Under the pieces are notes generated by a model. It had not been told where the DNA came from. It was given only the letters and a program-made list of their open reading frames with translations, and ran no database searches. Positions 2,023-38,600 of a stretch of DNA of 64,000 nucleotides are shown here, piece after piece. The position numbers and the translations under genes were made by a program. The DNA is from Narcine bancroftii (Eukaryota), in assembly GCF_036971445.1 (NCBI RefSeq), contig NC_091469.1, positions 36,642,001 through 36,706,000 on the forward strand, in the 5' to 3' direction. Numbering within the stretch: the stretch's first letter is position 1; each line of letters begins with the position of its first letter.

Positions 2023-2300
2023 CGAGCTCCTATTCCATTGTTCCTTCCGGGCGATATCTCTTTCTGTTCTCCAGCCTGCAGTGAGCTGACGCTAGGGGAG
2101 GAGCGCAGGCGTGATGGTTTGAGGATGACTGACAGGAGACGAGGAGTTCAAACCAGCAGCCGGAGATTCGAGGGAAAGAGCAGAGCCTTGGGTCTGCATT
2201 CGCCTTGTTCCAGCCCCAGTGTCTGAGTGAAGGTCCTTTCCCACCAGAACTGCCTTTGGCAAAGCAACTCTACCGCCGCATCTGCACTCAAGAGGAACAG
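2023..2300 (+). promoter_or_regulatory. Probable CHRNA6 proximal promoter / 5' UTR (CpG-enriched)
   Basis: Local GC and CpG enrichment directly upstream of the exon 1 ATG. The TSS cannot be determined from sequence. Confidence 0.4.
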
Positions 2301-2352
2301 ATGACAACTCTCGGGAAGACGCGACTATTAATCCTTATTGTTTTGATTCACG
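2301..2352 (+). CDS. CHRNA6: CHRNA6 exon 1 (signal peptide [17 protein letters not shown])
   Basis: ATG at 2301, hydrophobic stretch, donor G|GTAAGG; phase 1 matches exon 2. Confidence 0.75.
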
Positions 2353-5300
2353 GTAAGGGTATCTTTTTAACCTCAATAAAAATAAAGTTTGCGAATATAA
2401 GGACTTCGTGATTGGTCTAAAACCCGGGTTATTGTACAGCATGTGGTTCCTGCTGTCTGCAGACAAGAATGAGATATGCTATAATGGATATGTTTATGCC
2501 CTTTAAATGTCTTGTTTTATGTGTGCGTAGATTGTTTTAGTTTCAAAACAGAGGACCGTCTATTCCAGAGGATATTCCGCCGATATAATCAATTCATCAG
2601 ACCAGTCGAGAATGTCTCTGACCCCGTGATAGTGCAGTTCGAAGTCTCAATGTCCCAGCTGGTCAAAGTAGTAAGTGCATCCATGCATGGAGTTAACTTA
2701 ATTACAAGTGTGTTTTTCGATTTATGGTGCTGTTACCTTTCAGAGTTTAATTCATTCCATTTCAATCACCTCTTTGACAGGATGAAGTCAACCAAATAAT
2801 GGAGACAAATCTTTGGCTGCTGCATGTAAGTTGTATCAGGTGTACTGCACAGATGTTCACTTCCAGGGGACAATGACATCACTCATGTAACATCAGGCCC
2901 TGAATATGGTCCATTAATTTGGTTTCTCAGAAATGGGAAGCAGAACAGAGTGATTTTTGTCTATTTACTTCCAATCATCTGATGCTGCCCTGCTTAATTT
3001 CATCTCAATTCATTATCAGTAGCAAGCAGATGGACTGTGGCATGTGCACTGAAATATTAGCAGTGGAGCCATCAGAATTCTCCTCATTTATTTGAAAGAG
3101 TGAACAAAAAAGAAATCTTATTCCATTGTAGCATTGCAAATGACCATGATTCAAAGCCAATAATTTCCTTATTTACTTCTTTGCTTCTTCAAAATATCAC
3201 TGTGATCTGGTATCTGAAAGGCAGCATCTGTGAGAATTCTGATTCCCTCAGGACTGCATCTTAGATTTCTGTGCTCATGGTTCTGGAGTGGGTCTTGAAC
3301 CTTCTGATGCAGAGGCTAAAACATTGCTAACTGAGCAAGAGCTGGCACTTTAGGCCAACATGGAGCTATCCTCATGCCATGTTAGATTCCCTGATGACAT
3401 TGGAAACATCCTGGATCTTTGTAAAAAGAACTTTCATTGAGGCAGATGGAACTATTCCATTCACTTTAAACAAAATAAACAAGGAACCAAAACAAACATA
3501 TGCAATAAATGGCCAAGAGTAACTAGCCAGCTGCTGTTTGCTGGAGAGCAGAACTGCATGAGAGGAACTCAAGATAATATGGATCATTTTGTCTAGTATT
3601 CAAACCCTACAGCAACTCATTTTGATTATAAGTGCAGCTTAAGGGATCTATTTCCATTCTAGTATTGGGATTGTAGCTGCTGCTTTGTGGAAGTGGACCA
3701 TGTGGCATAAATTCTTTGACCCAGTACCACAGTAAAATATTGGGTGTTAAATAAAAAGAATTCTGAAACTCAGTAAATTGCCAGTCCAGCTTTGAAATTT
3801 TTTGGCTTTGTTGGTTTTCATTGGAATGCTATATTAGGATATTGTTTCTATTTCATCTACTCTCTGGAATGAAGAAAAACTATTTTGTTTTAAATTCTTA
3901 GTAAGTAGAATACAATTCCTTCTGTTAAATAGCTGAAAATATGCTAGATGTTCAAATAATATTTTCCTTTATTTCTAGGCTGTTCTTATTTCATCTCAAT
4001 AGTGTGTAATTTTCATTCATTATTTTATGCTAAATGTTAATTAAAATTATGCCATTCAAGTACAATTTGATGTCTTTAATGTAAGTGCCCAGTTAGTGTG
4101 CTTAATGGTATTATAGTAACTTGGACACAGGAGGTTCTATGGGACTGATACGACATCATAAATGATTTTGGAAAGGAATAAGAGCTCACGAGACACTTTT
4201 GGCAACTTCCTTCTGGGTCAGTAGCAAAGCAACATCGTTTAATAACAAAATCATACAGGTTTTATTGATTGTTAAATACTAAGCAATACAGTTGCTGCCA
4301 CAACTAACATCAGGTGATTTCATGGTAGCAAAAGGAAATCTGGTTTACTGATTACTAAAATTATTTGTTCATTAATTTTCAGTTAAAAATGAAACCAACT
4401 ATAATGTTAAATTATGGATTTCATTATCTGTGACCCTTTTTGCAAGAAGAATGATTATACAGTAATTTGAATCAAATGGGTAATCATAGTGTAAAATAAT
4501 ATCAGTAAATAGGTAGTGAATTGTGACCATTAAATAATCATTCTATTGATAAAACAAGACATATCCCGAAACTGAATGCATTTCCTTTCTTCCCTGAGCA
4601 CTTCTAACAGATCTGGAATGATTACAAATTCCGATGGAATCCAATTGATTATAATGGAATCAAGTATATCCGAGTTCCATCTGATATGATTTGGAAACCA
4701 GATATTGTGCTGTATAATAAGTAAGTGTCACAGGATGTATAAATTGGTACCAGTGCATCAATTTTATGAGAGAATGTGTTGCTATTTCCACAGGTATTTG
4801 AAAGTTTCACTTATTAGTTTTGGATTTTTCACCTTTGCAGTGCAGTTGGTGCTTTCCAAGTTGAAGACAAAACCAAGGCCCTTCTCAAGTATGATGGCAC
4901 TGTTACCTGGATGCCTCCTGCTATTTTCAAAAGCTCCTGCCCAATGGACATCACTTATTTTCCATTTGACTATCAGAATTGCTCGATGAAATTTGGATCT
5001 TGGACCTACGATAAAGCTGAGATTGACCTAACAATCATAGGGACCAAAGTAAATCTGAAGGATTTCTGGGAGAGTGGTGAATGGGAGATCATTGATGCCC
5101 CTGGATATAAACATGAACTTAAGTATAATTGTTGTGAAGAGATTTATCCTGATATCACTTATTCTTTCTATATACGTAGACTGCCTTTATTTTATACGAT
5201 CAACTTGATCATTCCCTGTCTGTTAATCTCTTTTCTAACTGTTCTAGTTTTTTATCTGCCCTCTGACTGTGGAGAAAAGGTCACTCTCTGTATATCTGTC

Positions 5301-8300
5301 CTTCTCTCCTTGACAGTGTTTCTTCTGGTTATCACTGAAACTATCCCTTCCACCTCCCTGGTAATCCCTCTGATTGGTGAGTACCTCTTGTTCACAATGA
5401 TATTTGTAACCCTCTCTATCATTATAACAGTCTTTGTTCTGAATGTGCATTACCGAACACCAACCACTCACATCATGCCGAGGTGGGTGCAAAAAACCTT
5501 CTTGGAATTCCTACCTAAAGTTATGTTGCTAAGAAAACCGTTGGAAGAAAAGAAAATCAAGAAATTAAGAAACAAGCAAAAAAAGGATAAATGTACCCAG
5601 AAAGACTGCACCAACCATCTGGAATATGATGGCTTCATGTTCCCAAAAGATCAGCTGAAATATCATTGCCAATACTGCAAAGGGCCCATGAGTACAGCGA
5701 CCTCCAACTTGCAAGGACAAATCAGTCTTCAGTCATTTGACTCTCTGCTTAATGACTCATTTCTTTCTTCTGAAATCCAACAGACTATAGAGAGTATTAA
5801 ATATATTGCAGAAAATACAAGGAGTCAGAATGAAGCCAAAGAGGTAAGTAAAATTGTTGACTTTGTCTCCATTAAATGAGTCAGATTGAGGCAGCGCACC
5901 CCTGTTCTACTGCATTGGATACTGCCACCATGACTTTCCATACCTTTCTCTTTCATGCCATTCTTGCTTCACACATTGTAAATATATCTATCATACATGC
6001 CTCAGTCACTGTCTGTGGCAATGAATTCCACAAACCTCCCACTCACCCGGGAAGGCAGGTCCTCCTGAATTCCCTTTTCCATTTATTCAAACTTGTCATA
6101 TGGGTACTGGGCCTCTGTATATCTACTCCAACATATTGTTTGATAATTTTTAAAAAAGCATGTTTGGTTTACCTCTAAACATTTTCTTTTAAGGAAGGTC
6201 CAACCATTTATTTTGTGTATGAACCAGATAAACCTTTAATGGACTTCCTCCAGCACCTCACCATACTTCTAATATATGATTGTGTGCACTCATTTATCTG
6301 CCCTATTACATCTTCCAGCCAAACATTGGTGATGCTACTCAACAATTCATATCTTACTGCCATAAGGTGAATATCTCTTCAGCATAAAGATATATACAAA
6401 TTTCAATTTACTCAAAATCACACTTCCCTTCTAGATTTTTCTCCTATTGACTAATAAAGATACAAAAAAAAATGATTTGAACCCAGCCAGAAAGTCAATA
6501 ACTTTTCCTGTTCCCATTATTCCAGACCTGATATCCTAAGTATCTGTAAAGGAGCATATTTATCCAAGGGAATTATTCAACCAATGGGGCAGAATATCAC
6601 AGTACACAATTTTAAAGAAAGATGCAGTGTGCTCACAATGTATGTTCCAAAGTGATCAGTTATTATAAGAAGCTATTCATAACTACCCCCTCCCCCAATA
6701 ATATGTTAAGATAAATATGTACATCCATAATTCACTCAGGTTATTTGGTATTATCTGTATCAGCATTAATATTCACAAATAAGGATCTGTTTAAATTTAC
6801 ACCTTACTTATATCTTTAAAAAAATATTATGTTTAGTATTTAATTCATTCTTATATTGATTCACATTTCTATTTCTACATTTGTTAATTTACACATTTTT
6901 CATGATAAACTTTATTACAAAGCGAGCATATTTTATTTTTTGGTTTGCTAAATCTTGATATCAGTGTTGATTCTAATGAATTGTTATTTTTCTTTGATAA
7001 CTCTGGTAGGGTCGAGCCCTGTATTCTTAAGATTAATGTCAGCAAACTAGCTCTATTTTTATTTAATATTATGAGGTACAGTTCATTATTGGATATAAAC
7101 AAGAAACCCCAAGTGATCAAAGAATAACATTGAGAACATAGATGAAAGGTGAAGTGAACAATGAAAAATAATTTTCCAGACTATAATACATACTCAAATA
7201 CAGTTTCATGTGAAGGTTTATAAAATCATGAAGGGAGTAGATAAAGTATTTTTCCCAGAGTAGAGGAATCTAAAGCTAGAAGATATAGATTTAAGATGAG
7301 AGGAGAAAGACATTAAAGGGGATCTTAAAGGCCATTGTTTTTTCCACACAGAGGGTGGTGGGTACATGGAACAAGCTGCCAGCAGAAGTGATAGAGTTGG
7401 GTATAATCATAACATTTAAAAGACATTTAGGCAGGTCCATGGATAGGGTAAGTTTATAAAATATATGGAACCAGTTTGGGTAGACATCTTGGTTGGCATG
7501 GACAAGTTGGGCTGAAGGGCCTGTTTCTGTACTCCAAAACACTGACTCTAATTTGCTCTCACTTTTAGATGGTACACAGCAGTATATTTTCCAATGAACC
7601 CAGTACGTTTAAAGAGAACACAGGAAAATGGATCCCAGTGAGTTTCAAGGGAGTGTTGATTACAGAACCAAACGAATACAAGGGAGCACACAAAGTAGGG
7701 CCTCAGTGAGTTTAAAGGGGTTTTGGGAACCTGGAACCTCTGTGTGTTAAAGGGAGGGCAGAAATGATCAGCTAGATGCCAAATGATAAGTTGGTAGTGG
7801 ATTATCCAAGTTTCATTTATTGATTTCAGGCTACACCTGATCTTGTAAAGCTCCTTTTCCAAAATTATATCCTTCCTTTTTTCTAAAGTAAACAGGTGGA
7901 AATCACAAGATCTGTGACCCATTTCAGTCATCACACTGAAACCATACCCTTATCAAAAGAGGTTTTCTGAGCTACACATGAGATCCACAGATATTCTATT
8001 TTTGTAGTATTTGTTGAGAATTTAAAATATCGACTGACACTATAAGTGAGGCATTGATTTACAGATAGCTGAGATAATAGTTAATCAGGTAGAAGAGAGA
8101 TCTTATTCAGAGAAGATCTGTGGTATTCTCACAGTCATCTAGGCCATCCATTCTCAACATTAATTTGGCTCTGGACCCCTTAGGACACTGCTCTTCCTAT
8201 GAAGCAATCAGCAGAGAACTGTTAACATTGTGACATTGTGATTTATTATTGTTTGTTTTAATTATCTTATATAGGTTGATTTAAATAAAAAAATTCAAAA

Positions 8301-8891
8301 AAAAAAGCAGTAAAGTTTAGTTCTTCTGTGCTTACTGACTACATAAAAAGCATAGTAATATATTTTATGATTTCAGTCTGTGCCCCCCCCCCCATAAATG
8401 TGATATGATGTGGCTCTCAGGGGGAGCAGTATGGCCCCCCATTGAGAATGGCTGATCTAGCCCAATGATTTTCTCTCAATCGCTACCAACAAGCAAAGAT
8501 CATTTATGGGCATTTATTTGATTAATGGTTCTGTGATCTTGTTTTCCTTGAAATTGTAAGTTTGTTTAGCACAGAATAAGTGTACTGAATTTACACCACA
8601 TCTTACAAAATATTGTAGATTAAGATGATGAAAAATTTTAAAAAACATGAAATAAGTGATTCCATTACTTTGCTTGAAATCAACTTTTCCTGTCCCATGT
8701 TTTTGTTTGGTTTCAAAAGTTGTGAAAGAAGTCATTTGGTAACAGGGTATTCTATTTTTGTCTTGCAGGTGGAAGATGATTGGAAATATGTGGCTATGGT
8801 AATGGACAGGATATTCCTGTGGGTTTTCATTTTAGTTTGTGTTCTGGGAACTGCAGGGTTGTTTCTACAGCCATTGATGATGACAGAATAA
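2301..8891 (+). CDS. CHRNA6: Neuronal nicotinic acetylcholine receptor subunit alpha-6, spliced gene, 6 coding exons, about 490 aa
   Basis: Exons 2301-2352, 2531-2670, 2781-2825, 4611-4720, 4841-5843 and 8769-8891 join in frame (1473 nt). Cys-loop [15 protein letters not shown], vicinal loop-C cysteines YNCCEEIY (alpha subunit) and M1-M4 are present. [33 protein letters not shown] and linkage to CHRNB3 favour alpha6 over alpha3. Confidence 0.9.
2531..2670 (+). CDS. CHRNA6: CHRNA6 exon 2
   Basis: TAG acceptor; [40 protein letters not shown]; GTAAGT donor. Confidence 0.93.
2781..2825 (+). CDS. CHRNA6: CHRNA6 exon 3 (45 nt)
   Basis: CAG|[15 protein letters not shown]|GTAAGT, the canonical 45-nt nAChR exon. 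Confidence 0.93.
3205..3350 (-). mobile_element. Old tRNA-derived SINE fragment (SacSINE1/DeuSINE-like head) in CHRNA6 intron 3
   Basis: Reverse complement reads GCTCAGTTAGCAATGTTTTAGCCTCTGCATCAGAAGGTTCAAGACCCACTCCAGAACCATGAGCACA, a tRNA-like head with a B box. Family recognised from memory. Confidence 0.5.
4611..4720 (+). CDS. CHRNA6: CHRNA6 exon 4 (110 nt)
   Basis: CAG|[36 protein letters not shown]|GTAAGT. Confidence 0.93.
4841..5843 (+). CDS. CHRNA6: CHRNA6 exon 5 (Cys-loop, loop C, M1-M3, cytoplasmic loop)
   Basis: Overlaps ORF 4911-5879; acceptor TTTGCAG at 4840, donor GAG|GTAAGT at 5843. Confidence 0.95.
6190..7130 (-). mobile_element. Degenerate L1-clade LINE ORF2 fragments
   Basis: AT-rich minus-strand coding remnants similar in character to the L1-like element at 50440-51870; heavily decayed. 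Confidence 0.4.
7210..7545 (+). mobile_element. CR1-type LINE 3' end
   Basis: GTTTATAAAATCATGAAGGG...CACACAGAGGGTGGTGGG...GGGCTGAAGGGCCTGTTTCTGT, a typical CR1 3' terminus. Confidence 0.65.
8145..8454. mobile_element. hAT (Charlie-type) MITE, about 310 bp, in CHRNA6 intron 5
   Basis: TIRs CATCCATTCTCAA / TTGAGAATGGCTG (12/13 match); 8-bp TSD ATCTAGGC (8137-8144) / ATCTAGCC (8455-8462). Confidence 0.75.
8769..8891 (+). CDS. CHRNA6: CHRNA6 exon 6 (M4, stop)
   Basis: CAG|[40 protein letters not shown]. Confidence 0.93.
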
Positions 8892-10195
8892 TTGTGTAGC
8901 ATTTAATACCTATAAAAGTCAATAGTATTAAGATCCAGTTTGTCATGTGACATTGCAATCTACATTACATTAAAAAAATTAAAATGACTGCACTGAAATC
9001 TCCATTTTTCATACTGTGGAAATATTGATTGTTAACAAATCACTGACATGGCCACTTATGGACAAAACAACAAATCATCTATAGTACTATTCATATTATC
9101 ATATCTAAGACTTGAGATCATGTCCAGAGTGTGTAGCAAGAGATGTGATGAATATTTCATGAAAAAGCACTGTTTAACATTGGAAATGAAATTAACCGCA
9201 AAATTATCTCCTGGATTTTTCAATTTTTTTTTCTTATTACCTAGTAATGATTTGGTTGAGGATATGCAATAAACTGTAGATGCTGGAATCTGGAGCAAAC
9301 CCTCATCTGGAAAACTCAGCATTAGTGGGAGTAAAGAAATGGTCAATATTTTGGGCTGGAACCTTCAACAGGACTGAGAGGAGATGGCCAGAATTATGAG
9401 GGCAGAATGGCAGGAGTTGGACAAGGGGCCAGTAGGGAATAGGTGAACTAGAGAGGGATGAAGAATGACTATTCGTTCCAGCTTTTAAAATAGGATGCAC
9501 TTTCTACACATTTTGCCTGAAATATCTTGTGCACCATTTTTTTTTCAGAGTAAAATGAAGCATTTATTTGACAGGAATGCTCAAGTGAGGAATTTTAAGA
9601 CAAGAAGTAAAGTTTTGATATTGTTTCCAACACATGGCAATCCTTTGAGAACAAGATTTTCTGGACCATACGTAATTTTTAATTTTTTTTTAAATTTTTC
9701 ACACTATGAACCATACTGACCAAAATACACACAAACATTTCCCTCTTGAATATACACAGTGTCATTTCCTCCCCTTTCCCCCCCCCCCCCCCACCTTTGG
9801 TGCATCATATTTTAAGAAAAAAAACACATTTGCTTCACCCTTTAGGTAACCACATGACTAATCTCTATTGATTTCAAATTATTTTTCATGCATGTTTCAA
9901 TTCATCTATGAAGTGTGGATACCATTGATAAGGCTGGTATTTACTGCATGTACCTAACTGGGGAGGCAGTGAGCAGTCAACACCTTGATGGGGACTTGCA
10001 ATTATACATAAACTAGGCTGGGTCAGGATGGTTGATTGTCTTCTCTGAAGGGCGTTGGTAAATCAATGAGATTTTGATGGCAATCATTTGATTTTATCGT
10101 CATCTTTACAACTGCTATTGTGATTTATCTAATTGTTGTATTTAAGTTTCTCATATGACCTCAGTTTTTTGGATTATTGGTTCATCCCTCTAGAT

Positions 10196-10874
10196 CACAC
10201 ATGTCAAACTCAGGCCCGTGGGCCAAATTTGGCCCATGATATAATTATATTTGGGCCGCAAGATCATATCAAATATGTATTAGACCTGGCCCGCTGGCCG
10301 CCACGCCAGTATAGCGCATGCACAGCTAATACTACAAATCCCAGAATGCTTTGCAAATGCGTTGGCACCGGCCCGTCAGCCCGCTAATCGCCCCCACCTC
10401 CTCTCTTTACTTTCATTAGCATCTGCGACCTGTCGCCCAACTCACATGTAATAAACCCCTCACGAAAAATGGCCAAACGAAAGACAGAAAACAGGACCTT
10501 TCAAGACAGGTGGGAGGCAGACTATATGTTCATCATTTTAAAAGACAACCCTGTTTGTCATTGAAGCAAGTTGTTATTTTTTTGACTTGTTGGCTTGTGA
10601 AAAAAAACCATTTAAAAGGAGCTTAAAGGCTATAGAGAAATATTATTTATTGAATATCTTATTTCTCATTTGTTAATGCTTCTTCTGGAAAGAGTTTAAC
10701 CAAAACTATTATTAAACATTTATTTTAATAAGAAAAAGTTTAACATTACATATGTTGAAAGAAGTGAAAACATGGAGATGTTTTTGAAAATTTTCAATAA
10801 ATATTTAGTTTGGCTCATGACTTAGTCCAAGTTTTTAATTTTGGCCCACTGTGAATTTGAGTTTGACACCCCTG
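10196..10874 (+). mobile_element. Internally deleted Charlie-group hAT DNA transposon
   Basis: Perfect 8-bp TSD CTCTAGAT (10188-10195 and 10875-10882); TIRs CAnnnnTGTCAAACTCA; transposase N-terminus MAKRKTENRTFQDRWEADYMF from 10469. Confidence 0.88.
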
Positions 10875-12377
10875 CTCTAGATCATAAATAGATAACTACT
10901 CTGTCATCCAAATTTTTAATCTGCAAACTAATTTGTTGGACTTGGTGCAAAGGGTTGATTTTATAGAGATTATATATCTGTGCTTTCACACTGATAACAT
11001 GGGGTGCTGATTATACTAATTTAATCAGCACTGATTCAAGGATGTCTTCTATGTAATGAACAACTATGGTTCACTACGACCTCATGCCTCTGACCTCAGG
11101 CAGTGAGGATAGAAGGGCTGTTTGGATCTGGGAAGCATTATAATCAAAAACTTTTGCAGCTGCTACATACCGATTAAGGGATCAAAGGTTCCTTTAATTG
11201 TCATGTAATAATACATTAAAAATGTAATATACATGATATACTTCAACTTTTGTCTGACATAAGACAGTCACCATGAGCATTGGCCAGCACCCCTAACAAT
11301 AGGAGAAAGAGGCTCTAATTTGTACAAAGCAATATTTATTTATCTTTTATCGATAAAATACTTGACCAGCATAGTATTATTTGTTTGGTTGTATATCTGC
11401 ATGTTTTCGCACTGACACCCAGAGAGCGCTGTTTTGTCGGATTGTACTTTCCGCAATCAGATGACAATAAACTTGACTTGAAAGAGAAACAAAAGAGACT
11501 CCCTTCAGAGACACAGGAAAAGAGATTACTGCTCTTCCTCACCCACCTACCATTCCCACACCATGCCTGTGGAGTTGTATCACTGCTATATCGTGGACTG
11601 GGCTGACCTCTGAAGTTCAGTCTGAGATACAGATGCAAAACTTAAAGTCGTCCAACTCATAACAATGTGAATTTATGGTGGATCTTGCAAAGGAAGAAGG
11701 AAAAATAATAAATTTACTTGGACTCGGCCACATATTAATGCACAATGGTTCTCATGGTGAGAGCTTTAGTGTTGTTATGGGAATCAACGTGTAGTAATTT
11801 ATGGTATACTTTTAGGATTTGAGGGTGGCACAGTGATTAAATTAACAGAATATTAGCCCAAATATCAGAACCCATTCGAATCATATTACAGCTACTGTAA
11901 TCCAGCACTCCCACTAATGCGGATCTGGGAGGGAGCAGAACCATTTCTTCCAGTACTGCTCCACAGGGGCCTATGGCCCAATTATCGTGCCTGACAGCCC
12001 TGTACATGTTTAAACTGCCTGTAGAATGGGGTTGGTGGTGTTTTTAATAGCAAAGAAACCCAAACAGGACTGTGCCCGATGTTTGGTACCGCAGAACACG
12101 AGGATTGTGGGCTCTGTGGGAATAAGCAGATGGTGCAGGGTTCTAAAACAGGAGATTCATTTCCCCCCCCCCCCACACCCCCATCCCTGTTCACCAAATA
12201 GAAGCTGGAGAGAAAACCCTATAGGGTAGGAGACCACAGAAGCAGGTTGACATAGAGATAAGTGATCAAAGTCTGCATTACCAGGCTGTAGGCTGCTGAC
12301 AGAGTCCTGAAGAAGGACAGGGCCTTAGGCACCGACAAATATGATAATCATTTTGGGGGTTCAGAAGCAGGGTGATC

Positions 12378-14356
12378 TGGAGTTGCCGATGACAATGACG
12401 ATGGAGATGACAATGGCGATGGAGTTGCCGATGACAATGACGATGGAGATGAAGATGACAATGGAGATGACGATGACAATGACGATGGAGATGAAGATGA
12501 CAATAATGATGGAGATGATGATGACAATGACGATGGAGATGAAGATGACAATGACGATGGAGATGATGATGACAATGATGATGGAGATGACGATGACAAT
12601 GATGATGGAGATGAAGATGACAATGACGATGGAGATGAAGATGACAATGATGATGAAGATGACGATGACAATAACGATGGAGTTGCCGATGACAATGACG
12701 ATGGAGATGAAGATGACGATGGAGATGACGATGACAATGACGATGGAGATGAAGATGACAATAATGATGGAGATGATGATGACAATGACGATGGAGATGA
12801 AGATGACAATGACGATGGAGATGATGATGACAATGATGATGGAGATGACGATGACAATGACGATGGAGATGACGGTGACAATGATGATGGAGATGAAGGT
12901 GACAATGATGATGGAGATGAAGGTGACAATGATGATGGAGATGTCGGTGACAATGATGATGGAGATGACGGTGACAATGATGATGGAGATGATGGTGACA
13001 ATGACGATGGAGATGAAGGTGACAATGATGATGGAGATGATGGTGACAATGATGATGGAGATGAAGGTGACAATGATGATGGAGATGAAGGTGACAATGA
13101 TGATGGAGATGGCGGTGACAATGATGATGGAGATGAAGATGACAATGATGAAGGAGATGACGATGACAATGATGGAGGTGAAGGTGACAATTATGATGGA
13201 GATGAAGGTGACAATGATGATGGAGATGAAGGTGACAATTATGATGGAGATGGCGGTGACAATGATGATGGAGATGAAGATGACAATGATGATGGAGATG
13301 ACGATGACAATGATGATGGAGGTGAAGGTGACAATTATGATGGAGATGAAGATGACAATGATGATGGAGATGATGGTGACAATGACGATGGAGATGACGA
13401 TGACAATGACGATGGAGATGACAATGACGATGGAGATGAAGATGACAATGACGATGAAGATGACGATGACAATAACGATGGAGTTGCCGATGACAATGAC
13501 GATGGAGATGAAGATGACAATGACGATGGAGATGATGATGACAATGATGATGGAGATGAAGATGACAATGACGATGGAGATGACAATGACAATGGAGATG
13601 ACGATGACGATGGAGATTACAATGACAATGATGATGGAAATGACGATGACAATGATGATGGAGATGAAGGTGACAATGATGATGGAGATGAAAGTGACAA
13701 TTATGATGGAGATGAAAGTGACAATGATGATGGAGATGACGGTGACAATTTTGATGGAGATGAAGATGACAATGATGATGGAGATGATGATGACAATGAT
13801 GATGGAGGTGAAGGTGACAATTATGATGGAGATGAAGATGACAATGACGATGGAGATGACGATGACAATGATGATGGAGATGACAATGACGATGGAGATG
13901 AAGATGACAATGACGATGAAGATGACGATGACAATAACGATGGAGTTGCCGATGACAATGACGATGGAGATGAAGATGACGATGGAGATGACGATGACAA
14001 TGACGATGGAGATGAAGATGACAATAATGATGGAGATGATGATGACAATGACGATGGAGATGAAGATGACAATGACGATGGAGATGATGATGACAATGAT
14101 GATGGAGATGACGATGACAATGATGATGGAGATGAAGATGACAATGACGATGGAGATGACGGTGACAATGACGATGGAGATGACGGTGACAATGACGATG
14201 GAGATGATGATGACAATGATGATGGAGATGAAGATGACAATGACGATGGAGATGACAATAACGATGGAGATGACGATGATAATGCAGATGACAATGACAA
14301 TGATGATGGAGATGACGGTGACAATGACAATGGAGATGACAATGACAATGATGATA
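12378..14356. repeat. About 2-kb triplet-phased minisatellite, core unit about 24 bp (GATGGAGATGAAGATGACAATGAC), with higher-order duplications
   Basis: Seen directly. The marker GGAGTTGCCGATGAC recurs at about 12379, 12421, 12679, 13480 and 13942. Confidence 0.95.
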
Positions 14357-14794
14357 ATAAAAAGAATGAATTTGTTGTCATATGCATTGTTTAATGTACT
14401 TAAGCACCAATATTCTTTCTTGCTACAGCTAAAAAGAAAAAAAAACTACAATACTATTCACTAAATTAATTTAAAAAAGGGTTAATAAACACTAAAGATA
14501 GATAGATTGCCTCAATTCTGTCTAAGATGTCCAGAAACCCAAAAAATAAAAATTGTCTTGTGACAAAGTTAAAACTAATAAAACTGAAGGCACAAATGCC
14601 AAGACCCTGCCTGCAGGAGAGTCTCCAAATCCCATAGCAACAGCAAATTAAAACTCAGTGCACAATAATTTATTATTCAAAGCAGAGAGATTCATCACCT
14701 TAATGCAGGAAGCAAATGCTAAACTGGATAATTGGTTAACAGATGTGTTCCATCTATTCATGAATAATCAATTTCTCATCTGTGTCAAGATCAG

Positions 14795-15770: not shown

Positions 15771-16203
15771 CTTCTTTCTTTGGCTTGGCTTCGCGGACGA
15801 AGATTTATGGAGGGGGTAAAAAGTCCACGTCAGCTGCAGGCTCGTTTGTGGCTGACAAGTCCGATGCGGGACAGGCAGACACGATTGCAGCGGTTGCAGG
15901 GGAAAATTGGTTGGTTGGGGTTGGGTGTTGGGTTTTTCCTCCTTTGCCTTTTGTCAGTGAGGTGGGCTCTGCGGTCTTCTTCAAAGGAGGTTGCTGCCCG
16001 CCAAACTGTGAGGCGCCAAGATGCACGGTTTGAGGCGTTATCAGCCCACTGGCGGTGGTCAATGTGGCAGGCACCAAGAGATTTCTTTAGGCAGTCCTTG
16101 TACCTTTTCTTTGGTGCACCTCTGTCACGGTGGCCAGTGGAGAGCTCGCCATATAACATGATCTTGGGAAGGCGATGGTCCTCCATTCTGGAGACGTGAC
16201 CCA
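15771..16203 (-). mobile_element. RTE-clade LINE, 5'-truncated 3' end
   Basis: GHVSRMEDHRLPK...[22 protein letters not shown]-terminus and (AAAG)n tail; near-identical to the other copies. Confidence 0.9.
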
Positions 16204-17057: not shown

Positions 17058-17284
17058 TTTTAGACATAGAGCATATTAACAGGCCATTTCGGACATGAGC
17101 CTGATCTGCCTAATTACACTAAATTAACTTACAACCCTGGTATGTTTTGAATAGTGGGAGGAAACTGGACTCCCGGGGAAAAACCATGCAGACATGGAGA
17201 GGCCTCCTTACAGACAGTATGGGATTTGAACCCTAGTTCAGATTGGTGGCATTGCAATAATGCTATGTACTAACAGTGGTGCCC
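17058..17284 (-). mobile_element. tRNA-derived HE1/V-SINE-like SINE
   Basis: Homologous to copies at 27705-27948, 45328-45537 and 54741-54960; reverse complement has B box GGTTCAAATCCC and a CR1-like tail. Confidence 0.65.
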
Positions 17285-17822
17285 CTCCTAAGCATTTGCT
17301 ATCACTCCTAATTTATACATTTCCAGTAAATCTAAATGTTATTTGCATTTGATGGTAAGCAAGAAATCTGCAGAGGCTGATGTCTAGTGCAGTATGCAAA
17401 AGTGCTAGATAAACTCAGTCAGTAATGCAGCATTTATAGAAAGCAAGAGGCAGTCAATATTTTGGGCCTGAGCTCTTTGTCATCAACCTGAATTTTGATA
17501 CTTCTGAAAAAGGGCTCAGGCCTAAAGAGTTTCTCTACCACTTTTGTGAATGGCATTTGCATTTGATGTTCATGTTTAGCCTCAACCATGTTTCCTTCAC
17601 ACACAGCATTCTGCTAATTTAATTATTCTGTAAATGTATTTCTGTTTCTGTGAGACTGACCTTAATTTACATTCATACATTGATTGATGTGAAGTTGCAC
17701 TTTACAGATGCATGGATTGTGGTTTCGGGTGTTGGTGTTGGCATACCTAATGTATGGGCATTGCTGCTTTATTTCACTGTATACTTTTAATGGCTGGCAA
17801 ATCAAGAGTGTGCAAATCAATT

Positions 17823-20800
17823 CTTTCTTTGGCTTGGCTTCGCGGACGAAGATTTATGGAGGGGGTAAAAAGTCCACGTCAGCTGCAGGCTCGTTTGTGG
17901 CTGACAAGTCCGATGCGGGACAGGCAGACACGATTGCAGCGGTTGCAAGGGAAAATTGGTTGGTTGGGGTTGGGTGTTGGGTTTTTCCTCCTTTGCCTTT
18001 TGTCAGTGAGGTGGGCTCTGCGGTCTTCTTCACAGGAGGTTGCTGCCCGCCAAACTGTGAGGCGCCAAGATGCACGGTTTGAGGCATTATCAGCCCACTG
18101 GCGGTGGTCAATGTGGCAGGCACCAAGAGATTTCTTTAGGCAGTCCTTGTACTTCTTCTTTGGTGCACCTCTGTCACGGTGGCCAGTGGAGAGCTCGCCA
18201 TATAACACGATCTTGGGAAGGCGATGGTCCTCCATTCTGGAGACGTGACCCATCCAGCGCAGCTGGATCTTCAGCAGCGTGGACTCGATGCTGTCGACCT
18301 CTGCCATCTCGAGTACTTCGACGTTAGGGGTGTAAGCGCTCCAATGGATGTTGAGGATGGAGCGGAGACAACGCTAGTGGAAGCGTTCTAGGAGCCGTAG
18401 GTGGTGCCGGTAGAGGACCCATGATTCGGAGCCGAACAGGAGTGTGGGTATGACAACGGCTCTGTATACGCTTATCTTTGTGAGGTTTTTCAGTTGGTTG
18501 TTTTTCCAGACTCTTTTGTGTAGTCTTCCAAAGGCGCTATTTGCCTTGGCGAGTCTGTTGTCTATCTCATTGTCGATCCTTGCATCTGATGAAATGGTGC
18601 AGCCGAGATAGGTAAACTGGTTGACCGTTTTGAGTTTTGTGTGCCCGATGGAGATGTGAGGGGGCTGGTAGTCATGGTGGGGAGCTGGCTGATGGAGGAC
18701 CTCAGTTTTCTTCAGGCTGACTTCCAGGCCAAACATTTTGGCAGTTTCCGCAAAGCAGGACGTCAAGCGCTGAAGAGCTGGCTCTGAATGGGCAACTAAA
18801 GCGGCATCGTCTGCAAAGAGTAGTTCACGGACAAGTTTCTCTTGTGTCTTGGTGTGAGCTTGCAGGCGCCTCAGATTGAAGAGACTGCCATCCGTGCGGT
18901 ACCGGATGTAAACAGCGTCTTCATTGTTGGGGTCTTTCATGGCTTGGTTCAGCATCATGCTGAAGAAGATTGAAAAGAGGGTTGGTGCGAGAACACAGCC
19001 TTGCTTCACGCCATTGTTAATGGAGAAGGGTTCAGAGAGCTCATTGCTGTATCTGACCCGACCTTGTTGGTTTTCGTGCAGTTGGATAATCCAAGAACGC
19101 GGCGCGGGCTACACACTCTACTGGTCTGGCAAGCCTTCGGATGAACGACGCCTATCTGGTGTAGGCTTCATGGTCAAGAGCTTCATTGCCTCCAAACTCG
19201 AAAACCTTCCGACAGGCCTCTCGGACCGAATCATGTCCATGCGACTCCCACTTCAAAACAAGCGTCACATCACCCTCATCAGTGTCTATGCTCCAACCCT
19301 CCAGGCGGAACCAGCAGAAAAGAACAAGTTCTACACCGACCTGCGCAACCTCATCCAACGTACCCCTACAGCCGACAAGGTTGTCATCCTGGGCGACTTC
19401 AACGCTCGTGTCGGCAAAGACTCAGAAACCTGGCCAGGAATCCTGGGCAAGCATGGCGTCGGCAAGTGCAACGACAATGGGCGCCTCCTGTTGGAGCTCT
19501 GCGCAGAACAGCGACTTGTCATTACAAACACCCTTTTTCAGCAGAGGGACAGCCTTAAGACCACCTGGATGCATCCCCGATCCAAACACTGGCACCTCCT
19601 GGACTACATCCTGGTGCGAGAAAGTGACAAACAAGATGTGCTCCACACCAGGGTCATGCCTCGCGCGGAATGCCACACTGACCACCGGCTGGTTCGCTGC
19701 AAGCTCAACCTTCACTTCAAGCCAAAGCCCAGGAACAATAAAGCCCCCAGAAAGAGGTTCAATGTTGGAAACCTGCAGTCAGACGAAGCGAGAGGAAACT
19801 TCCAGGCAAACCTCAAAGCAAAGCTCGACGTTGCAACCCGCCTCACGGACCCGTCCCCTGAAACCCTCTGGGATCAGTTGAAGACTACCATACTGCAATC
19901 CACTGAAGAGGTACTGGGCTTCTCCTCCAGGAAAAACAAGGACTGGTTTGACGAAAACAGCCAGGAAATCCAGGAGCTGCTGGCAAAGAAGCGAGCTGCC
20001 CACCAGGCTCACCTTACAAAGCCGTCCTGTCCAGAGAAGAAACAAGCCTTCCGTCGCGCATGCAGCCATCTTCAGCGCAAACTCCGGGAGATCCAAAATG
20101 AGTGGTGGACTAGCCTCGCCAAACGAACCCAGCTCAGCGCGGACATTGGCGACTTCAGGGGTTTCTATGAGGCTCTAAAGGCTGTGTACGGCCCCTCACC
20201 CCAAGTCCAAAGCCCGCTGCGCAGCTCAGACGGCAAAGTCCTCCTCAGCGACAAGATCTCCATCCTCAACCGATGGTCAGAACACTTCCAATCTCTTTTC
20301 AGTGCCAACCGCTCAGTCCAAGATTCCGCCCTGCTCCAGCTCCCTCAACAGCCCCTAAGGCTAGAGCTGGATGAGGTTCCCACCCTGGATGAGACATATA
20401 AGGCAATCGAACAACTGAAAAGTGGCAAAGCAGCAGGTATGGATGGAATCCCCCCAGAAGTCTGGAAGGCTGGCGGCAAAACTCTGCATGCCAAACTGCA
20501 TGAGTTTTTCAAGCTTTGTTGGGACCAAGGTAAATTGCCTCAGGATCTTCGTGATGCCACGATCATCACCCTGTACAAAAACAAAGGCGAGAAATCAGAC
20601 TGCTCAAACTACAGGGGAATCACGTTGCTCTCCATTGCAGGCAAAATCTTCGCTAGGATTCTACTAAATAGAATAATACCTAGTGTCGCCGAGAATATTC
20701 TCCCAGAATCACAGTGCGGCTTTCGCGCAAACAGAGGAACCACTGACATGGTCTTTGCCCTCAGACAGCTCCAAGAAAAGTGCAGAGAACAAAACAAAGG

Positions 20801-20904
20801 ACTCTACATCACCTTTGTTGAGCTCACCAAAGCCTTCGACACCGTGAGCAGGAAAGGGCTTTGGCAAATACTAGAGCGCATCGGATGTCCCCCAAAGTTC
20901 CTCA
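17823..20904 (-). mobile_element. RTE-clade LINE insertion with inverted 5' part (3' part 17823-19090 on -, endonuclease/RT-N part 19090-20904 on +)
   Basis: APE endonuclease (ISVYAPT, LGDFNARVG, LDYIL, TDHRLV) and RT (NYRGITLLS, QCGFR, KAFDTV; KQGCVLAP, LFADD). 11-bp TSD GCAAATCAATT at 17812-17822 and 20905-20915. Confidence 0.93.
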
Positions 20905-21189
20905 GCAAATCAATTAGGCTTATTTCAAATCTCACATCTGCATTCTTGTGATTCAAGCTGTTCTCAACATATCAAAGATGTGCCTTTTGTTCGCATTTAT
21001 TAGACTTCTGTGCTCATTAAGCTAAACCAAGTCTTGCAGCATGCAAGAAATCATCAGGTTAGTTGCACTTGCCAAGATTAGAAATGGCAAAAAGTGCATG
21101 TTACTTTTCTCTTCCCTGAACTCCAACAATATGTTTTAAATGCTACTCAAGAACACCATGATGTAATTTATGACATTGCTATTCTATCC

Positions 21190-22154
21190 CATTCAGAGCC
21201 AGCTCTTCAGCGCTTGACGTCCTGCTTTGCGGAAACTGCCAAAATGTTTGGCCTGGAAGTCAGCCTGAAGAAAACTGAGGTCCTCCATCAGCCAGCTCCC
21301 CACCATGACTACCAGCCCCCCCACATCTCCATCGGGCACACAAAACTCAAAACGGTCAACCAGTTTACCTATCTCGGCTGCACCATTTCATCAGATGCAA
21401 GGATCGACAATGAGATAGACAACAGACTCGCCAAGGCAAATAGCGCCTTTGGAAGACTACACAAAAGAGTCTGGAAAAACAACCAACTGAAAAACCTCAC
21501 AAAGATAAGCGTATACAGAGCCGTTGTCATACCCACACTCCTGTTCGGCTCCGAATCATGGGTCCTCTACCGGCACCACCTACGGCTCCTAGAACGCTTC
21601 CACCAGCGTTGTCTCCGCTCCATCCTCAACATCCATTGGAGCGCTCACACCCCTAACGTCGAGGTACTCGAGATGGCAGAGGTCGACAGCATCGAGTCCA
21701 CGCTGCTGAAGATCCAGCTGCGCTGGATGGGTCACGTCTCCAGAATGGAGGACCATCGCCTTCCCAAGATCGTATTATATGGCGAGCTCTCCACTGGCCA
21801 CCGTGACAGAGGTGCACCAAAGAAAAGGTACAAGGACTGCCTAAAGAAATCTCTTGGTGCCTGCCACATTGACCACCGCCAGTGGGCTGATAACGCCTCA
21901 AACCGTGCATCTTGGCGCCTCACAGTTTGGCGGGCAGCAGCCTCCTTTGAAGAAGACCGCAGAGCCCACCTCACTGACAAAAGGCAAAGGAGGAAAGACC
22001 CAACACCCAACCCCAACCAACCAATTTTCCCTTGCAACCGCTGCAATCGTGTCTGCCTGTCCCGCATCGGACTGGTCGGCCACAAACGAGCCTGCAGCTG
22101 ACGTGGACTTTTTACCCCCTCCATAAATCTTCGTCCGCGAAGCCAAGCCAAAGA
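21190..22154 (+). mobile_element. RTE-clade LINE, 5'-truncated, independent insertion
   Basis: RT C-terminus to tail; TSD ATTCTATCC at 21181-21189 and 22157-22165. Confidence 0.92.
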
Positions 22155-22881
22155 CAATTCTATCCGTATGACATAAAACCATAGAACACTGCAGCACAGG
22201 CAAAGACCATTCAGCCCTTCCACTCTGTGCCAAACAATTATATTGCTGTGTCACACTGTCCTGCATCCAGACCATAGCACTCCATACCTTTCCCATCCAT
22301 ACACCTGTCCAAAGTTTTATTAAATGTTAAAATTGAGCCCACATTCGCCACTTCAGCTGGCAGCTTGTTCCTCACTGCCTGCATTTGGCTCATATCTCTC
22401 TAAATCTATCCTACCCTTAAATGTGTTCATTTTTTTCTATTTTTTCTAAAAGATTAAATATTTAGTTTGTTTGCATGTGTCCATAAATTAAGTAGTTCAC
22501 TATCAGTAAAAATTGTAATCCTGTATCATGATTGAAAAATTTATTTAATTGATGAAAATTGTCTGGATTTATCACAAATTTGAGGAGTTGTTTAAAGGGT
22601 AATCATCTTAGAAAAAATTTAGTTAATTTGCTACAAGGGTACATTTGTCTAAAGGTTTAGATAGTCTTCTGATCTTTAATAGCACCCTTTTTTTTCTGTT
22701 GGAACATGAATCTTGTACGGTATAATTTTTTATTACTTTAAAGTTAGGTAGTATCTGTCAATTTTTTCCACATTAATTAATTTCCAGCAAGATTTATACA
22801 CTTGAGATTTTTGTTTTATTCACCATCACAGCTTTGGATAATGTGGCTTGTCCTTTGGCAATGAGTTTTATGTGAGAGATA

Positions 22882-23761
22882 TTCTTCTTTCTTTCTTTGG
22901 CTTGGCTTCGCAGACGAAGATTTATGGAGGGGTATATGTCCACGTCAGCTGCAGGCTCGTTTGTGGCTGACAAGTCCGATGCGGGACAGGCAGATACGGT
23001 TGCAGCGGTTGCAAGGGAAAATTGGTGGGTTGGGGTTGGGTGTTGGGTTTTTCCTCCTTTGTCTTTTGTCAGTGAGGTGGGCTCTGTGGTCTTCTTCAAA
23101 GGAGGTTGCTGCCCACCGAACTGTGAGGCGCCAAGATGCACGGTTTGAGGCGATATCAGCCCACTGGCGGTGGTCAATGTGGCAGGCACCAAGAGATTTC
23201 TTTAGGCAGTCCTTGTACCTCTTCTTTGGTGCACCTCTGTCACGGTGGCCAGTGGAGAGCTCGCCATATAACACGATCTTGGGAAGGCGATGGTCCTCCA
23301 TTCTGGAGATGTGACCTACCCAGCGCAGTTGGATCTTCAGCAGCGTGGATTCGATGCTGTCGGCCTCTGCCATCTCGAGTACTTCGATGTTGGGGATGAA
23401 GTCACTCCAACGCTGGTGGAAGCGTTCTAGGAGCCGTAGTGATGCCGGTAGAGGACCCATGATTCGGAGCCGAACAGGAGTGTGGGTATGACAACGGCTC
23501 TGTATACACTTATCTTTGTGAGGTCTTTCAGTTGGTTGTTTTTCCAGACTCTTTTGTGTAGTCTTCCAAAGGCGCTATTTGCCTTGGCGAGTCTGTTGTC
23601 TATCTCGTTGTCGATCCTTGCATCTGATGAAATGGTGCAGCCGAGATAGGTAAACTGGTTGACCGTTTTGAGTTTTTTGTGCCCGATGGAGATGTGGGGG
23701 GGCTGGTAGTCATGGTGGGGAGCTGGCTGATGGAGGACCTCAGTTTTATTCAGGCTGACTT
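22882..23761 (-). mobile_element. RTE-clade LINE, 5'-truncated, more diverged variant
   Basis: Same family, with diagnostic differences (WSDFIPN, ADSIES, RWVGH, GGGGTATATGTCC in the 3' UTR) and a small internal deletion. Confidence 0.9.
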
Positions 23762-28614: not shown

Positions 28615-28814
28615 TTTCTTCTTTCTTTGGCTTGGCTTCGCGGACGAAGATTTATGGAGGGGGTAAATGTCCACGTCAGCTGCAGGCTCGTTGGTGGCTG
28701 AAAAGTCCGATGCGGGACAGGCAGACACAGTTGCAGCGGTTGCAGGGGAAAATTGGTTGGTTGGGGTTAGGTGTTGGGTTTTTCCTCCTTTGCCTTTTGT
28801 CAGTGAGGTGGGCT
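28615..28814 (-). mobile_element. RTE-clade LINE, short 3' end
   Basis: Same 3' terminus and tail as the other RTE copies. Confidence 0.88.
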
Positions 28815-35654: not shown

Positions 35655-38600
35655 ATGTGAAGTTAATAAAACATCGAATGCAAGTTTTATCTGGTAAATT
35701 TCTCAGTGTCTTTATTTTCCAGTTTCCATTGTTCTCCTGCTTGTGCTCTTATCTTTCTCTCATACCACGTGACTTCCGGTACATCTCATACATATTCATT
35801 ATCATGACATCCCTCCTTTAATCAGAAATAAACTTTACCTTCACTTATCAATATCCCTCGGAAGCCTACAAACATCGTAATTAATGGTAATACTATAACT
35901 CAACTACATAAAATTTACTTCCTAAAGCACTCATACATGCACTTTATGATATATGATTAGAATACTGTCCCAAAGTTCTTATTAAAACTATGGCACAAAG
36001 TCTTCATATCGTTTGGGCACTTTCCGGTTTCGTTTCGGCCTGCCTGCGATATTGTCGTCACTTCTCGGTTGTTCACTCTCAGCGTCGGAAATACTGCTCG
36101 CCAAGGCTTCGGGTGTTTCTGGCGCTCTAGTCACTTCATCAGGAGTGCTGGTAACTGCCTCTGGAACATCATCAGGTCTCTCAGTTTCAGCATCTCGTAT
36201 TGGCCTTTCAACCTCTTCGCTCGATGTATCTCTGGACTGGTACCTTTTTACACCTGATACATTTCTCTTATACAGGACTCCAGTCAGAGACGTGACTGTC
36301 ACCATACTACCACTTCTGGATATGACAGTATAGGGTTGATGGTAATAAGGTGTGTCTAGCTTACCACCAGTTTCATGCCTCACTAGAACATTATCTCCTG
36401 GCATGATGTCTGAGTACTTGGCTCCACGTTTCGAATCTGTGTACAGCTTTGCTGCACCTTTCTTTTCAGCATCGCGGTCCCTCATCTCCTGGTCGTCTCG
36501 GATTTCCTTTATTTCTGGCATTTTTGTGCGGATTTTTCTCCCAAAAAATGCTTCTGCAGGACTTTTTCCAGTGGTTGCATGAGGCGTTGCTCGATAGACA
36601 GCCACATAAGATAGCAATGCTTCTCGTCAATTTTGTCCTTCTGCGTGTGCAATCCTCAATCGTTTTTCAATGGACTGATTTTGTCTCTCTACTTCCCCGT
36701 TGGCTTGCGGCCATTTCGGAGTTACTTTATGATGGTGGATACCTGTGGTCCTCATGTATTCCGCAAATGTCTCTGAAATGAATTGTGGACCATTGTCAGA
36801 GTATAATGTAACAGGTAATCCATATCTTGCGAATATCTCTGCTAATGCTTGTATTGTTTTTTCAGTGGTTGTGGACTTCAACACCACGTACTCATAGTAT
36901 CTGCTGTAGTAATCTATCACTACCATAATTGATTCACCCGTCGGTAAAGGTCCAAGAAAATCAACAGCTACGTCGATCCATGGTCCTGTCGGGAGTTGCG
37001 TACTCCGGATCGGTTCTGGCGGATTACTCCTACTTGTGATTTGACATCCGTGACAAATTTTAACAAATTTCTCTGCGTCTTTATCACAACTTGGCCACCA
37101 TACCTTGGTTCTGAGGTTTTGCTTGGTACCAACAATACCTAGGTGTCCTTCATGCGCTAAGGATACGATCTTCGGTCTCAACCTTTGCGGAATCACCAAT
37201 CTGCAACCTCTTAATACACACTGTCCGATGCAACAAAGTTCGTCTCTGATGGGAATGTAAGCCTTGTGAGTACACTTGTCCCATTGTCCACTCTGTATGC
37301 ATTCTCTTACTTCCATGAGTTCTGGATCACGTTCGGATTCTCTCTCGACTTCCTTCGTAGTCACAGCTTTCGGTGTCGCCTGAATAGCTACGAAGCGTAC
37401 AAAGCTCTCTGTTTCTGTTCCCAATTCTGACTTGGATTGTGGACCACCATCCTTCACCAATCTGGACAGCGGATCAGCAATGTTTCCTTTCCCTGCAATG
37501 TGGATTACTTTATATTTGTAGGGTTGTAGTCTGAGTACCCATCTCTCTATTCTGGCACATGGTTTGGATCTAGGTGCATAGATCACCTCTAATGGCTTAT
37601 GATCTGTGATGAGTTCAAATTCAATGCCGTATAAATATGCATGGAACCTCTCACAGGCCCATACAAGTCTGAGTGCTTCTTTCTCTGTCTGAGAGTATCT
37701 TCTTTCCACATCTGATAACGATCTGCTGCCATAGGCAATGATTCTTGGTACACCTTTCCTGGTTAGTTTCCTTAGTGGTTCTGCCACTGTAGCGAAATTA
37801 GGAATGAACTTTGCACAAAAATTGACCAATCCCAGGAAACTCCTCACCTCTGTTGCATTCTGAGGTGCACGTGCCTCTGCAATAGCTTTCACCTTGGCCT
37901 CTGCAGGGTTTAGTCCTTCCCGTGTAAGTCTGTGTCCCATGAAGTCCATTTCTGACACACTGAACTGGCACTTGTTTCCATTCACGGTAAGGCCTGCCTC
38001 CTGTAGTCTAGATAGTAAACGCCTCAACCATCTGTCATGCTCTTCCTTCGTTGGTGCATGGACTATGATGTAGTCAGAAATGTTGGCAACTCCAGGAATG
38101 CCTTGAATCACTCAATGGATTTCATACTGGTAGATCTCCGAAGCTGCATTAATTCCAAATGATAGACTCTTGTAACGATACAATCCACAGTGAGTCACAA
38201 ATGTTGTTACATCTCGGGAACCTGGATCCAGCTCTAATTGATGATAGCCCCATTTCAGATCAATTTTTGAGAATACCTTGCTGGTAGTTAGTTCTTGAAG
38301 TATTTCCTCCACTGTTGGTATAGGGTGTCGTTCTCTAATTATAGCTTCATTGGCCATTCTCATGTCAACACATAGTCTTATGTCACCCTTTGGTTTGGGC
38401 ACAATCACTACAGGACTGACCCATTGTGTCAAATGTTCCACAGGTTCAATAATGTCTTGTTCGATCAATTCTTTAATTTTGTCTTCGACTTTCCTACGAA
38501 GTCCAAACAGAGTTCGGCGCATTGGTTGTGCCTTGGGTTTGACCGTTTCATCTATCACTAGCTTCAATTGTCGACCTTTCGGCTTTCCTACTCCTTGGAA

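Follow-up and report, generated by a model that had tools for sequence, protein, structure and literature searches.

A 5'-inverted RTE retrotransposon copy within a single 11-bp target-site duplication, very probably formed by twin priming

The window, meaning the whole 64,000-nucleotide stretch of DNA that was analysed, contains a 3.1-kb RTE-type element whose front part is inverted and which lies between two identical 11-bp repeats (Table 1). Very probably, this copy results from one insertion, the 5' part of which was inverted by twin priming within a single 11-bp target-site duplication (TSD). The footprints left in the genome, namely the geometry of the halves, the spacing of the breaks, the microhomologies and the TSDs, argue for twin priming, and both ends of the cut DNA likely serve the element as primers for copying its RNA, in analogy to human L1. 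Inversion is common in this RTE family, not exceptional. The mechanism is known from L1; what is new is the clade of the element, together with the rate and the controls.

Table 1. Features of the inverted copy and its surroundings (positions in the window; reference positions are those of the full-length copy described in the text)
Feature	Position	Strand	Details
TSD copy adjoining the 3' tail	17812..17822	+	GCAAATCAATT; AATTGATTTGC when read in the sense of the element
Short purine tail	17823..17832	-	CCAAAGAAAG; typical of the family
Non-inverted 3' segment	17823..19091	-	reference 2286-3553
Inversion junction	19090..19091		TC, a 2-base microhomology common to both segments; within a 13-base hairpin (19082-19094)
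Inverted 5' segment	19090..20904	+	reference 467-2281
End of the TSD copy facing the internal priming site	20905..20907	+	GCA; compared with the element, 3/3 with the G variant and 2/3 with the common A variant
TSD copy next to the inverted segment, at its outer end	20905..20915	+	GCAAATCAATT
Separate 5'-truncated copy of the same family, 970 bp	21188..22157	+	own 9-bp TSD, ATTCTATCC

Re-checking of the sequence confirmed all coordinates given in the original prediction, as well as the location of the two halves on opposite strands within the identical 11-mer, which has no third occurrence on either strand of the window. A natural full-length copy of 3,555 bp with its own 12-bp TSD (L061:1657-5211) served as the reference. 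The forward-strand segment at 19090-20903 shares 99.2% identity with reference 467-2280, and the reverse-strand segment at 17823-19091 shares 98.8% identity with reference 2286-3553; both alignments are gap-free, with 15 differences in each segment. The inverted 5' segment comprises most of the endonuclease, the linker and the first half of the reverse transcriptase (RT), followed in the non-inverted 3' segment by the second half of the RT, the C-terminal region with a Cys/His motif and the 3' UTR. The element lacks its first 466 bases (1-466), and the frame of the 3' segment is split by one in-frame stop at 18374, so that the copy is dead; it is a single copy without evident function.

The two parts of the RT meet at the break with hardly any loss. 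The peptides GCPPKFL and IIQLHENQQG, expected from the sequence to be neighbours with a few bases missing between them, are continuous across the break position in 28 of 29 other loci, where the joined motif reads GCPPKFL-NM-IIQLHENQQG. Alignment to the full-length copy bore out this close spacing, with TC as a 2-base microhomology: one base was lost if the template had G at reference 2282, and four if it had the common A. The G is the rarer variant (4 of 53 copies), and the pairing at the internal priming site of the window copy likewise amounts to 3 bases or 0, depending on the template variant. Had G at reference 2282 marked a subfamily, the priming microhomology would have been settled, but this idea was rejected for want of linkage, the window copy being no nearer to G-variant copies than to A-variant copies. 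The window holds seven copies of the family, and the 5'-truncated copy downstream is an independent insertion outside the inverted element. A TSD belonging to either half of the inverted copy was looked for and none was found, which, together with the enclosing TSD, supports the proposal of a single integration event.

Sequence likeness supports the assignment of the element to the RTE retrotransposons, as an AviRTE-like member of a young, very abundant family. Long stretches of the protein (endonuclease and linker), compared by eye, are almost identical to the AviRTE translations in the available portion of supplementary file 3 of PMC4844689; along with the single-ORF build, this near-identity upholds the RTE assignment of the original prediction. 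Both elements have a single EN-RT ORF, with protein relatives in suboscine birds as well as in marine invertebrates, and by sequence likeness the present element is a relative of AviRTE rather than a claimed member of it. The accessible sections of PMC4844689 assign AviRTE to the RTE superfamily, where it groups with elements from aquatic animals, and the word 'inversion' is absent from the main text of that paper. Copy L189 carries an unbroken frame of 1,160 codons, and the Pfam domains of the element protein are RVT_1, Exo_endo_phos and Exo_endo_phos_2 only. The build is that of an RTE element: one ORF with an APE-type endonuclease and RT, without a separate ORF1 or RNase H, in 3,555 bp (about 3-4 kb being expected). 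Membership of the L1 clade (two ORFs, poly(A), about 6 kb) was ruled out by the one ORF, the length of 3.5 kb and the lack of poly(A). L1 ORF2 and R2 structures are matched only weakly (E about 1e-19), and the clusters found for the element in the protein atlas are generic EN-RT only.

The TSD length peaks at 11-12 bp, the first base is A in 28 of 30 cases and the tails are of AAG type; for animal RTE elements, the portion of PMC6007223 at hand gives a TSD peak of 10-12 bp, a first base that is often A and a microsatellite-like tail. The closest named homologues of the endonuclease belong to the electric ray Narcine bancroftii (96-99%); those of sea urchin (79%) and suboscine birds (62-70%) come next. 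The ray homologues speak for a ray as host, in line with the cartilaginous fish suspected earlier. Some homologues bear the name 'craniofacial development protein 2-like', which we take to be linked to the RTE endonuclease. In the 3.33-Gb genome, an exact 29-base motif of the 3' end occurs 70,508 times; for a 28-base motif close to position 2290, there are 18,544 exact matches.

The inversion rate was estimated from the first 100 exact 3'-end matches on contig C1, which cover 4 Mb near one contig end, a copy being scored as inverted when it has an adjacent opposite-strand piece of at least 28 bases. Ten of these 100 copies are 5'-inverted (95% CI 4.9-17.6%), and the event can no longer be regarded as a one-off. 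Extrapolation from the 70,508 occurrences gives about 7,000 inverted copies genome-wide (3,500-12,400), provided that these 4 Mb are representative. Altogether, 224 distinct 3' ends were annotated, drawn from the 100 listed matches of the 29-base motif, 90 of the 100 listed matches of the 28-base motif, 30 loci of a genome search with the window element (40 scored copies) and the window. The pooled set of 32 inverted copies consists of 10 from the 3'-end sample, 13 from the 28-base-motif sample, 8 from the genome search and the window copy. The TSD comparison rests on 32 inverted and 167 plain copies, 25 of the 224 ends having been set aside because they lay in a tandem array, had insufficient flanking sequence or adjoined a piece on the same strand. 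One of nine apparent inversions (L030/L074) proved to be an internal deletion. Two further inverted copies lie inside L1-clade hosts and stand outside the counts.

Inversion is associated with a longer non-inverted part, with 0 of 46 copies inverted below 570 bases and 10 of 54 above (p = 0.002). A sharp lower limit was rejected after a 12-base inverted scrap with a TSD was found on a 270-base copy, and the limit is soft. A finer search detected inverted 5'-end scraps of 11-17 bases in 5 of the 167 plain copies, with 0 in the control.

Comparison of the flanks revealed a marked difference between the two classes of copies. A strict TSD encloses the opposite-strand halves in 30 of 32 inverted copies, compared to 57 of 167 plain copies (p = 1e-10), whereas shuffled unrelated flanks yield one by chance in 227 of 45,156 pairs (0.5%). 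When only copies with 97% identity or more to the reference are considered, the counts are 26 of 27 inverted versus 40 of 115 plain. The low rate in plain copies could not be explained as a detection artefact, since under relaxed rules it reached no more than 60 of 167, compared to 57 under the strict ones, with the inverted copies staying at 30 of 32. TSDs of inverted copies are 8-15 bp long, mostly 11-12, and abut the element in 27 of 30 cases, compared to 22 of 57 in plain copies. At the inner junction, by contrast with the outer ends, a TSD of at least 7 bases is present in only 3 of 32 inverted copies, with a maximum of 7. For 6 of the 30 TSD-bearing inverted copies, the target is present once in uninterrupted sister copies of the host repeat, the overlap at these empty sites being equal to the TSD length in five and one base longer in one. 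The search for an empty site with a single target thus succeeded among host-repeat paralogues of other copies; for the window copy itself, no paralogue of the flanking sequence was found.

The breaks within the element are close together, at most 15 bases apart in 21 of 32 inverted copies and at most 50 in 25 of 32, and 466-1,309 bases were lost in 3 of 32. Microhomology at the TSD-side junction averages 1.59 bases against a null of 0.62 (27 copies; 0 of 5,000 simulations as high), and at the inner junction 2.35 against 0.66 (20 copies without extra bases; 0 of 3,000 simulations as high). Extra bases, 1-25 in number, occur at the inner junction in 12 of 32 copies, and 9 of the 27 abutting copies have zero microhomology at the priming junction. 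The short inverted repeat TTGGA-TAA-TCCAA that had been noted at the junction of the window copy is indeed present at 19082-19094. It is not diagnostic: stems of at least 5 bp are found at 4 of 32 inversion junctions compared to 5.8% of random joins. The hairpin was therefore discarded as a mechanistic clue and is probably incidental, because such stems are not enriched. Overall, one TSD around both halves, adjacent breaks and junction microhomology fit the twin-priming geometry originally recognized.

We propose that the window copy was assembled as follows. The endonuclease would cut both target strands, with an offset of 11 bases, while the first cDNA is still being made. One 3' end would prime at the RNA tail, by normal target-primed reverse transcription at the purine tail, with extension as far as position 2286. 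The second 3' end, with its 11-base overhang, would prime internally at about 2281, just upstream of the stalled first RT as in the L1 model, and be extended to 467; the two cDNA ends would then be joined via TC, and host repair would fill in. The RT might protect the second overhang by capturing it early, and this may be why inverted copies nearly always have a clean TSD while plain truncated copies mostly have none. As the element has a single ORF, an ORF1 protein is likely dispensable for twin priming, and a poly(A) tail is probably not needed for inversion either.

Several other routes to such a copy were weighed. Snap-back or template switching of the first cDNA, without a second priming event on the RNA, is improbable. 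In its favour are the 5-bp hairpin at the junction of the window copy, the short inverted scraps in plain copies and copy L204, whose 58-bp inverted piece lies wholly within its non-inverted part and which has no TSD; moreover, antisense 5' junctions of this kind are described for R2-based inserts in the available text of PMC11371274. Those R2 junctions, however, arise from cDNA fold-back that repeats sequence. Snap-back re-copies existing cDNA, whereas the inverted 467-2281 does not overlap 2286-3553, so that the inverted 1.8 kb needs RNA as its template; nor are hairpins enriched at the junctions. The lack of overlap largely refutes snap-back for the window copy. Less probable still is a later inversion, in which a normal 5'-truncated copy was inserted and its front was subsequently flipped by repair or by recombination with the copy at 21188-22157. 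The family exceeds 70,000 copies, this neighbour is 98.7% identical, only 270 bp away and opposite in orientation to the 3' half, and an inversion starting exactly at the 5' end of the element would give a formally identical product. But the neighbour is limited to reference 2585-3554, without either breakpoint, and is flanked by a TSD of its own; with 13 differences in 967 bases, it is no closer to the 3' half than distant copies are (11-17 in about 1,265). A later inversion would also have to break exactly at the TSD edge, and such a start for 27 of 30 copies is implausible.

An assembly or read artefact, that is, a fold-back chimera in a highly repetitive region, has a very slight probability. 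In short-read contigs of one sample, the sequence runs without interruption across each outer junction (17205-17842 and 20878-21180) and extends 20 and 27 bases into the element, which is below the 31-base bridging rule. No contig spanning the inner junction at 19090 is among the short-read contigs of a listing that omits records. The same contigs hold many other antisense-to-sense junctions of the RTE family, and a chimera would neither create a TSD nor join adjacent, non-overlapping parts of the element. No joint skipping the element, as from an empty allele, appeared among the joints listed, the flank contigs running on into the element. Two independent head-to-head insertions at one spot, one 5'-truncated and the other 3'-truncated, might be considered given the density of copies in the window and the true neighbouring or nested opposite-strand insertions of an L1-clade family in the same genome. 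In the L1-clade case whose flanks were read, however, each element had a separate TSD, whereas here one TSD surrounds both halves, the forward-strand half lacks a tail and 1-4 bases separate the two ends on a 3.5-kb element. The single TSD and the adjacent breaks refute the two-insertion reading, barring an allele that carries just one of the halves.

Twin priming, the reading preferred here, has its model in L1. The model is said to be that of Ostertag and Kazazian (2001). As outlined in the accessible parts of PMC12016303 and PMC2912911, both ends prime, and the cDNAs anneal via a few bases before repair. The inverted RTE copies resemble human and chimpanzee L1 in having an inverted upstream piece within one TSD and microhomology at both junctions, as far as the available text of PMC12016303, PMC2912911 and PMC4245944 describes them. 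According to the partial L1 sources, breaks lie within 20 bp in 132 of 287 human L1 cases, compared to 21 of 32 within 15 here; inverted inserts keep full-length TSDs in both; the TSD length peaks at about 15 in human L1 and at 11-12 here; and inversion affects 18-30% of human L1 copies but about 10% of all RTE copies here, or 10 of 54 when only those with at least 570 non-inverted bases are counted. The RTE element differs from L1 in its single ORF, the lack of an ORF1 protein, its short tail of (AAG) type instead of poly(A) and its non-mammalian host. The excerpted PMC4245944 states that inverted L1 inserts retain TSDs of 10-20 bp and suggests that a 5-base overhang is too short for priming; by analogy, the RTE data fit this suggestion, with an overhang of 11-12 bases apparently being enough.

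Inversions in human cells come almost only from L1, with one case of Nimb-2_DR in chicken DT40 cells, as reported in the consulted part of PMC4245944. That case is similar in having antisense element sequence at a non-L1 5' junction and differs in being a single cell-culture event; from what these sources present, neither it nor the R2 case represents a pattern of non-overlapping halves that recurs frequently in the germline. The words 'inversion', 'inverted' and 'twin' are all absent, by term search, from a 2026 paper on Bov-B insertion signatures (PMC13295347), and the accessible sections of PMC5389967 and PMC4476161 contain no case of RTE inversion. More generally, a literature search, shallow for most matches, returned no report of twin priming in RTE elements. 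A paper by Ichiyanagi and Okada (2008), reportedly a survey of RTE junctions, may bear on this claim.

A young family of more than 70,000 copies, with an estimated 3,500-12,400 inverted, provides a large natural data set from a non-L1 clade, in which the timing of RTE second-strand cleavage becomes testable from genome sequence. Repeat annotation will report the inverted copies as two separate matches. The broader proposition, that a single-ORF RTE element routinely uses twin priming in the germline, without an ORF1 protein, and has left thousands of flipped copies in one fish genome while an L1-clade family of the same genome has none, is in our judgement evenly balanced. If true, the EN-RT of the element and its 11-12 base overhang, and not factors of a mammalian host, would confer the ability, and whether a TSD survives would hinge on early capture of the second end.

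Whether the element or the host determines inversion is left open in the available text of PMC4245944. The same genome offers a comparison between two families. The second of these, approximately 6 kb long, has two reading frames and an A-rich tail and for these reasons presumably belongs to the L1 clade; of its domains, Pfam bore out the RT alone. Scoring of 35 of 40 loci, with two duplicates, left 34 distinct loci, none of which carries a 5' inversion. This 0 of 34 compares to 6 of 40 RTE copies with at least 850 non-inverted bases (p = 0.028), the L1 set being older and chosen by similarity, and suggests that the element rather than the host controls inversion. The two look-alikes among the L1-clade loci proved to involve separate antisense elements: for L281, a full-length copy nested inside another, and for L282-L285, a neighbouring element with its own TSD.

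In the AviRTE-like RTE family, a 15-base minisatellite sits in the 5' region of the element, near positions 235-296 of the reference (natural full-length copy L061:1657-5211, 3,555 bp), at the genomic loci L127, L184, L182 and L065; in some long copies it has grown to many hundreds of bases, and the expanded array of L127 keeps the reading frame. Two short derivatives, L052:793-1536 and L193:3525-4327, have the 5' end of the element fused directly to its 3' end, with joins of about 235-430 to 3245-3345, and derivatives of this type possibly constitute a non-autonomous SINE-like subfamily. At L219:333-1139, the element's final 153-174 bases are repeated as five tandem copies.

Among the sampled plain copies of the family, which are 5'-truncated but not inverted, no TSD could be detected in about two thirds, even under relaxed rules (107/167). 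Of the 57 with a strict TSD, 35 carry additional bases at their 5' end. Deletions at the target site may be frequent among plain copies.

The RT region of the family protein at L189:323-3676 shares 70-79% identity with proteins of sea urchin, lancelet, shrimp and medaka; for one carp protein the figure is 69%. Because the marine spread of these related proteins is patchy, the sequence comparison suggests horizontal transfer of the family, in parallel to AviRTE, for which horizontal transfer is known.

Around the inverted element, a 9-base copy of the TSD start, GCAAATCAA, at window 17797-17805 precedes the left TSD by 15 bases and seems to be a locally repeated stretch of the target. An inversion of at least 28 bases was found in none of the five additional 5'-truncated family copies in the window.

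Further features of the window
Feature	Position	Strand	Remarks
Receptor subunit, large exon	4818-5876	+	neuronal nicotinic acetylcholine; closest to alpha-3/alpha-6
Triplet repeat, ~2 kb	12300-14450		degenerate, GAT/GAC-type
5'-truncated RTE-family copy	15775-16203
5'-truncated RTE-family copy	21188-22157
5'-truncated RTE-family copy	22892-23761
5'-truncated RTE-family copy	28622-28814
LTR-type element, fragmented	35991-39965	-	PNMA-like gag, zinc knuckle, protease, RT, RNase H, integrase
5'-truncated RTE-family copy	43945-44048
Second receptor subunit, large exon	56590-57633	+	neuronal nicotinic acetylcholine; without vicinal cysteines

The window also contains an LTR-type element, which we take to be Gypsy-like, and a triplet repeat that has strong GC skew and is open in several reading frames. 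The two receptor-subunit exons share one strand, and the second subunit is presumably beta-3- or alpha-5-like.
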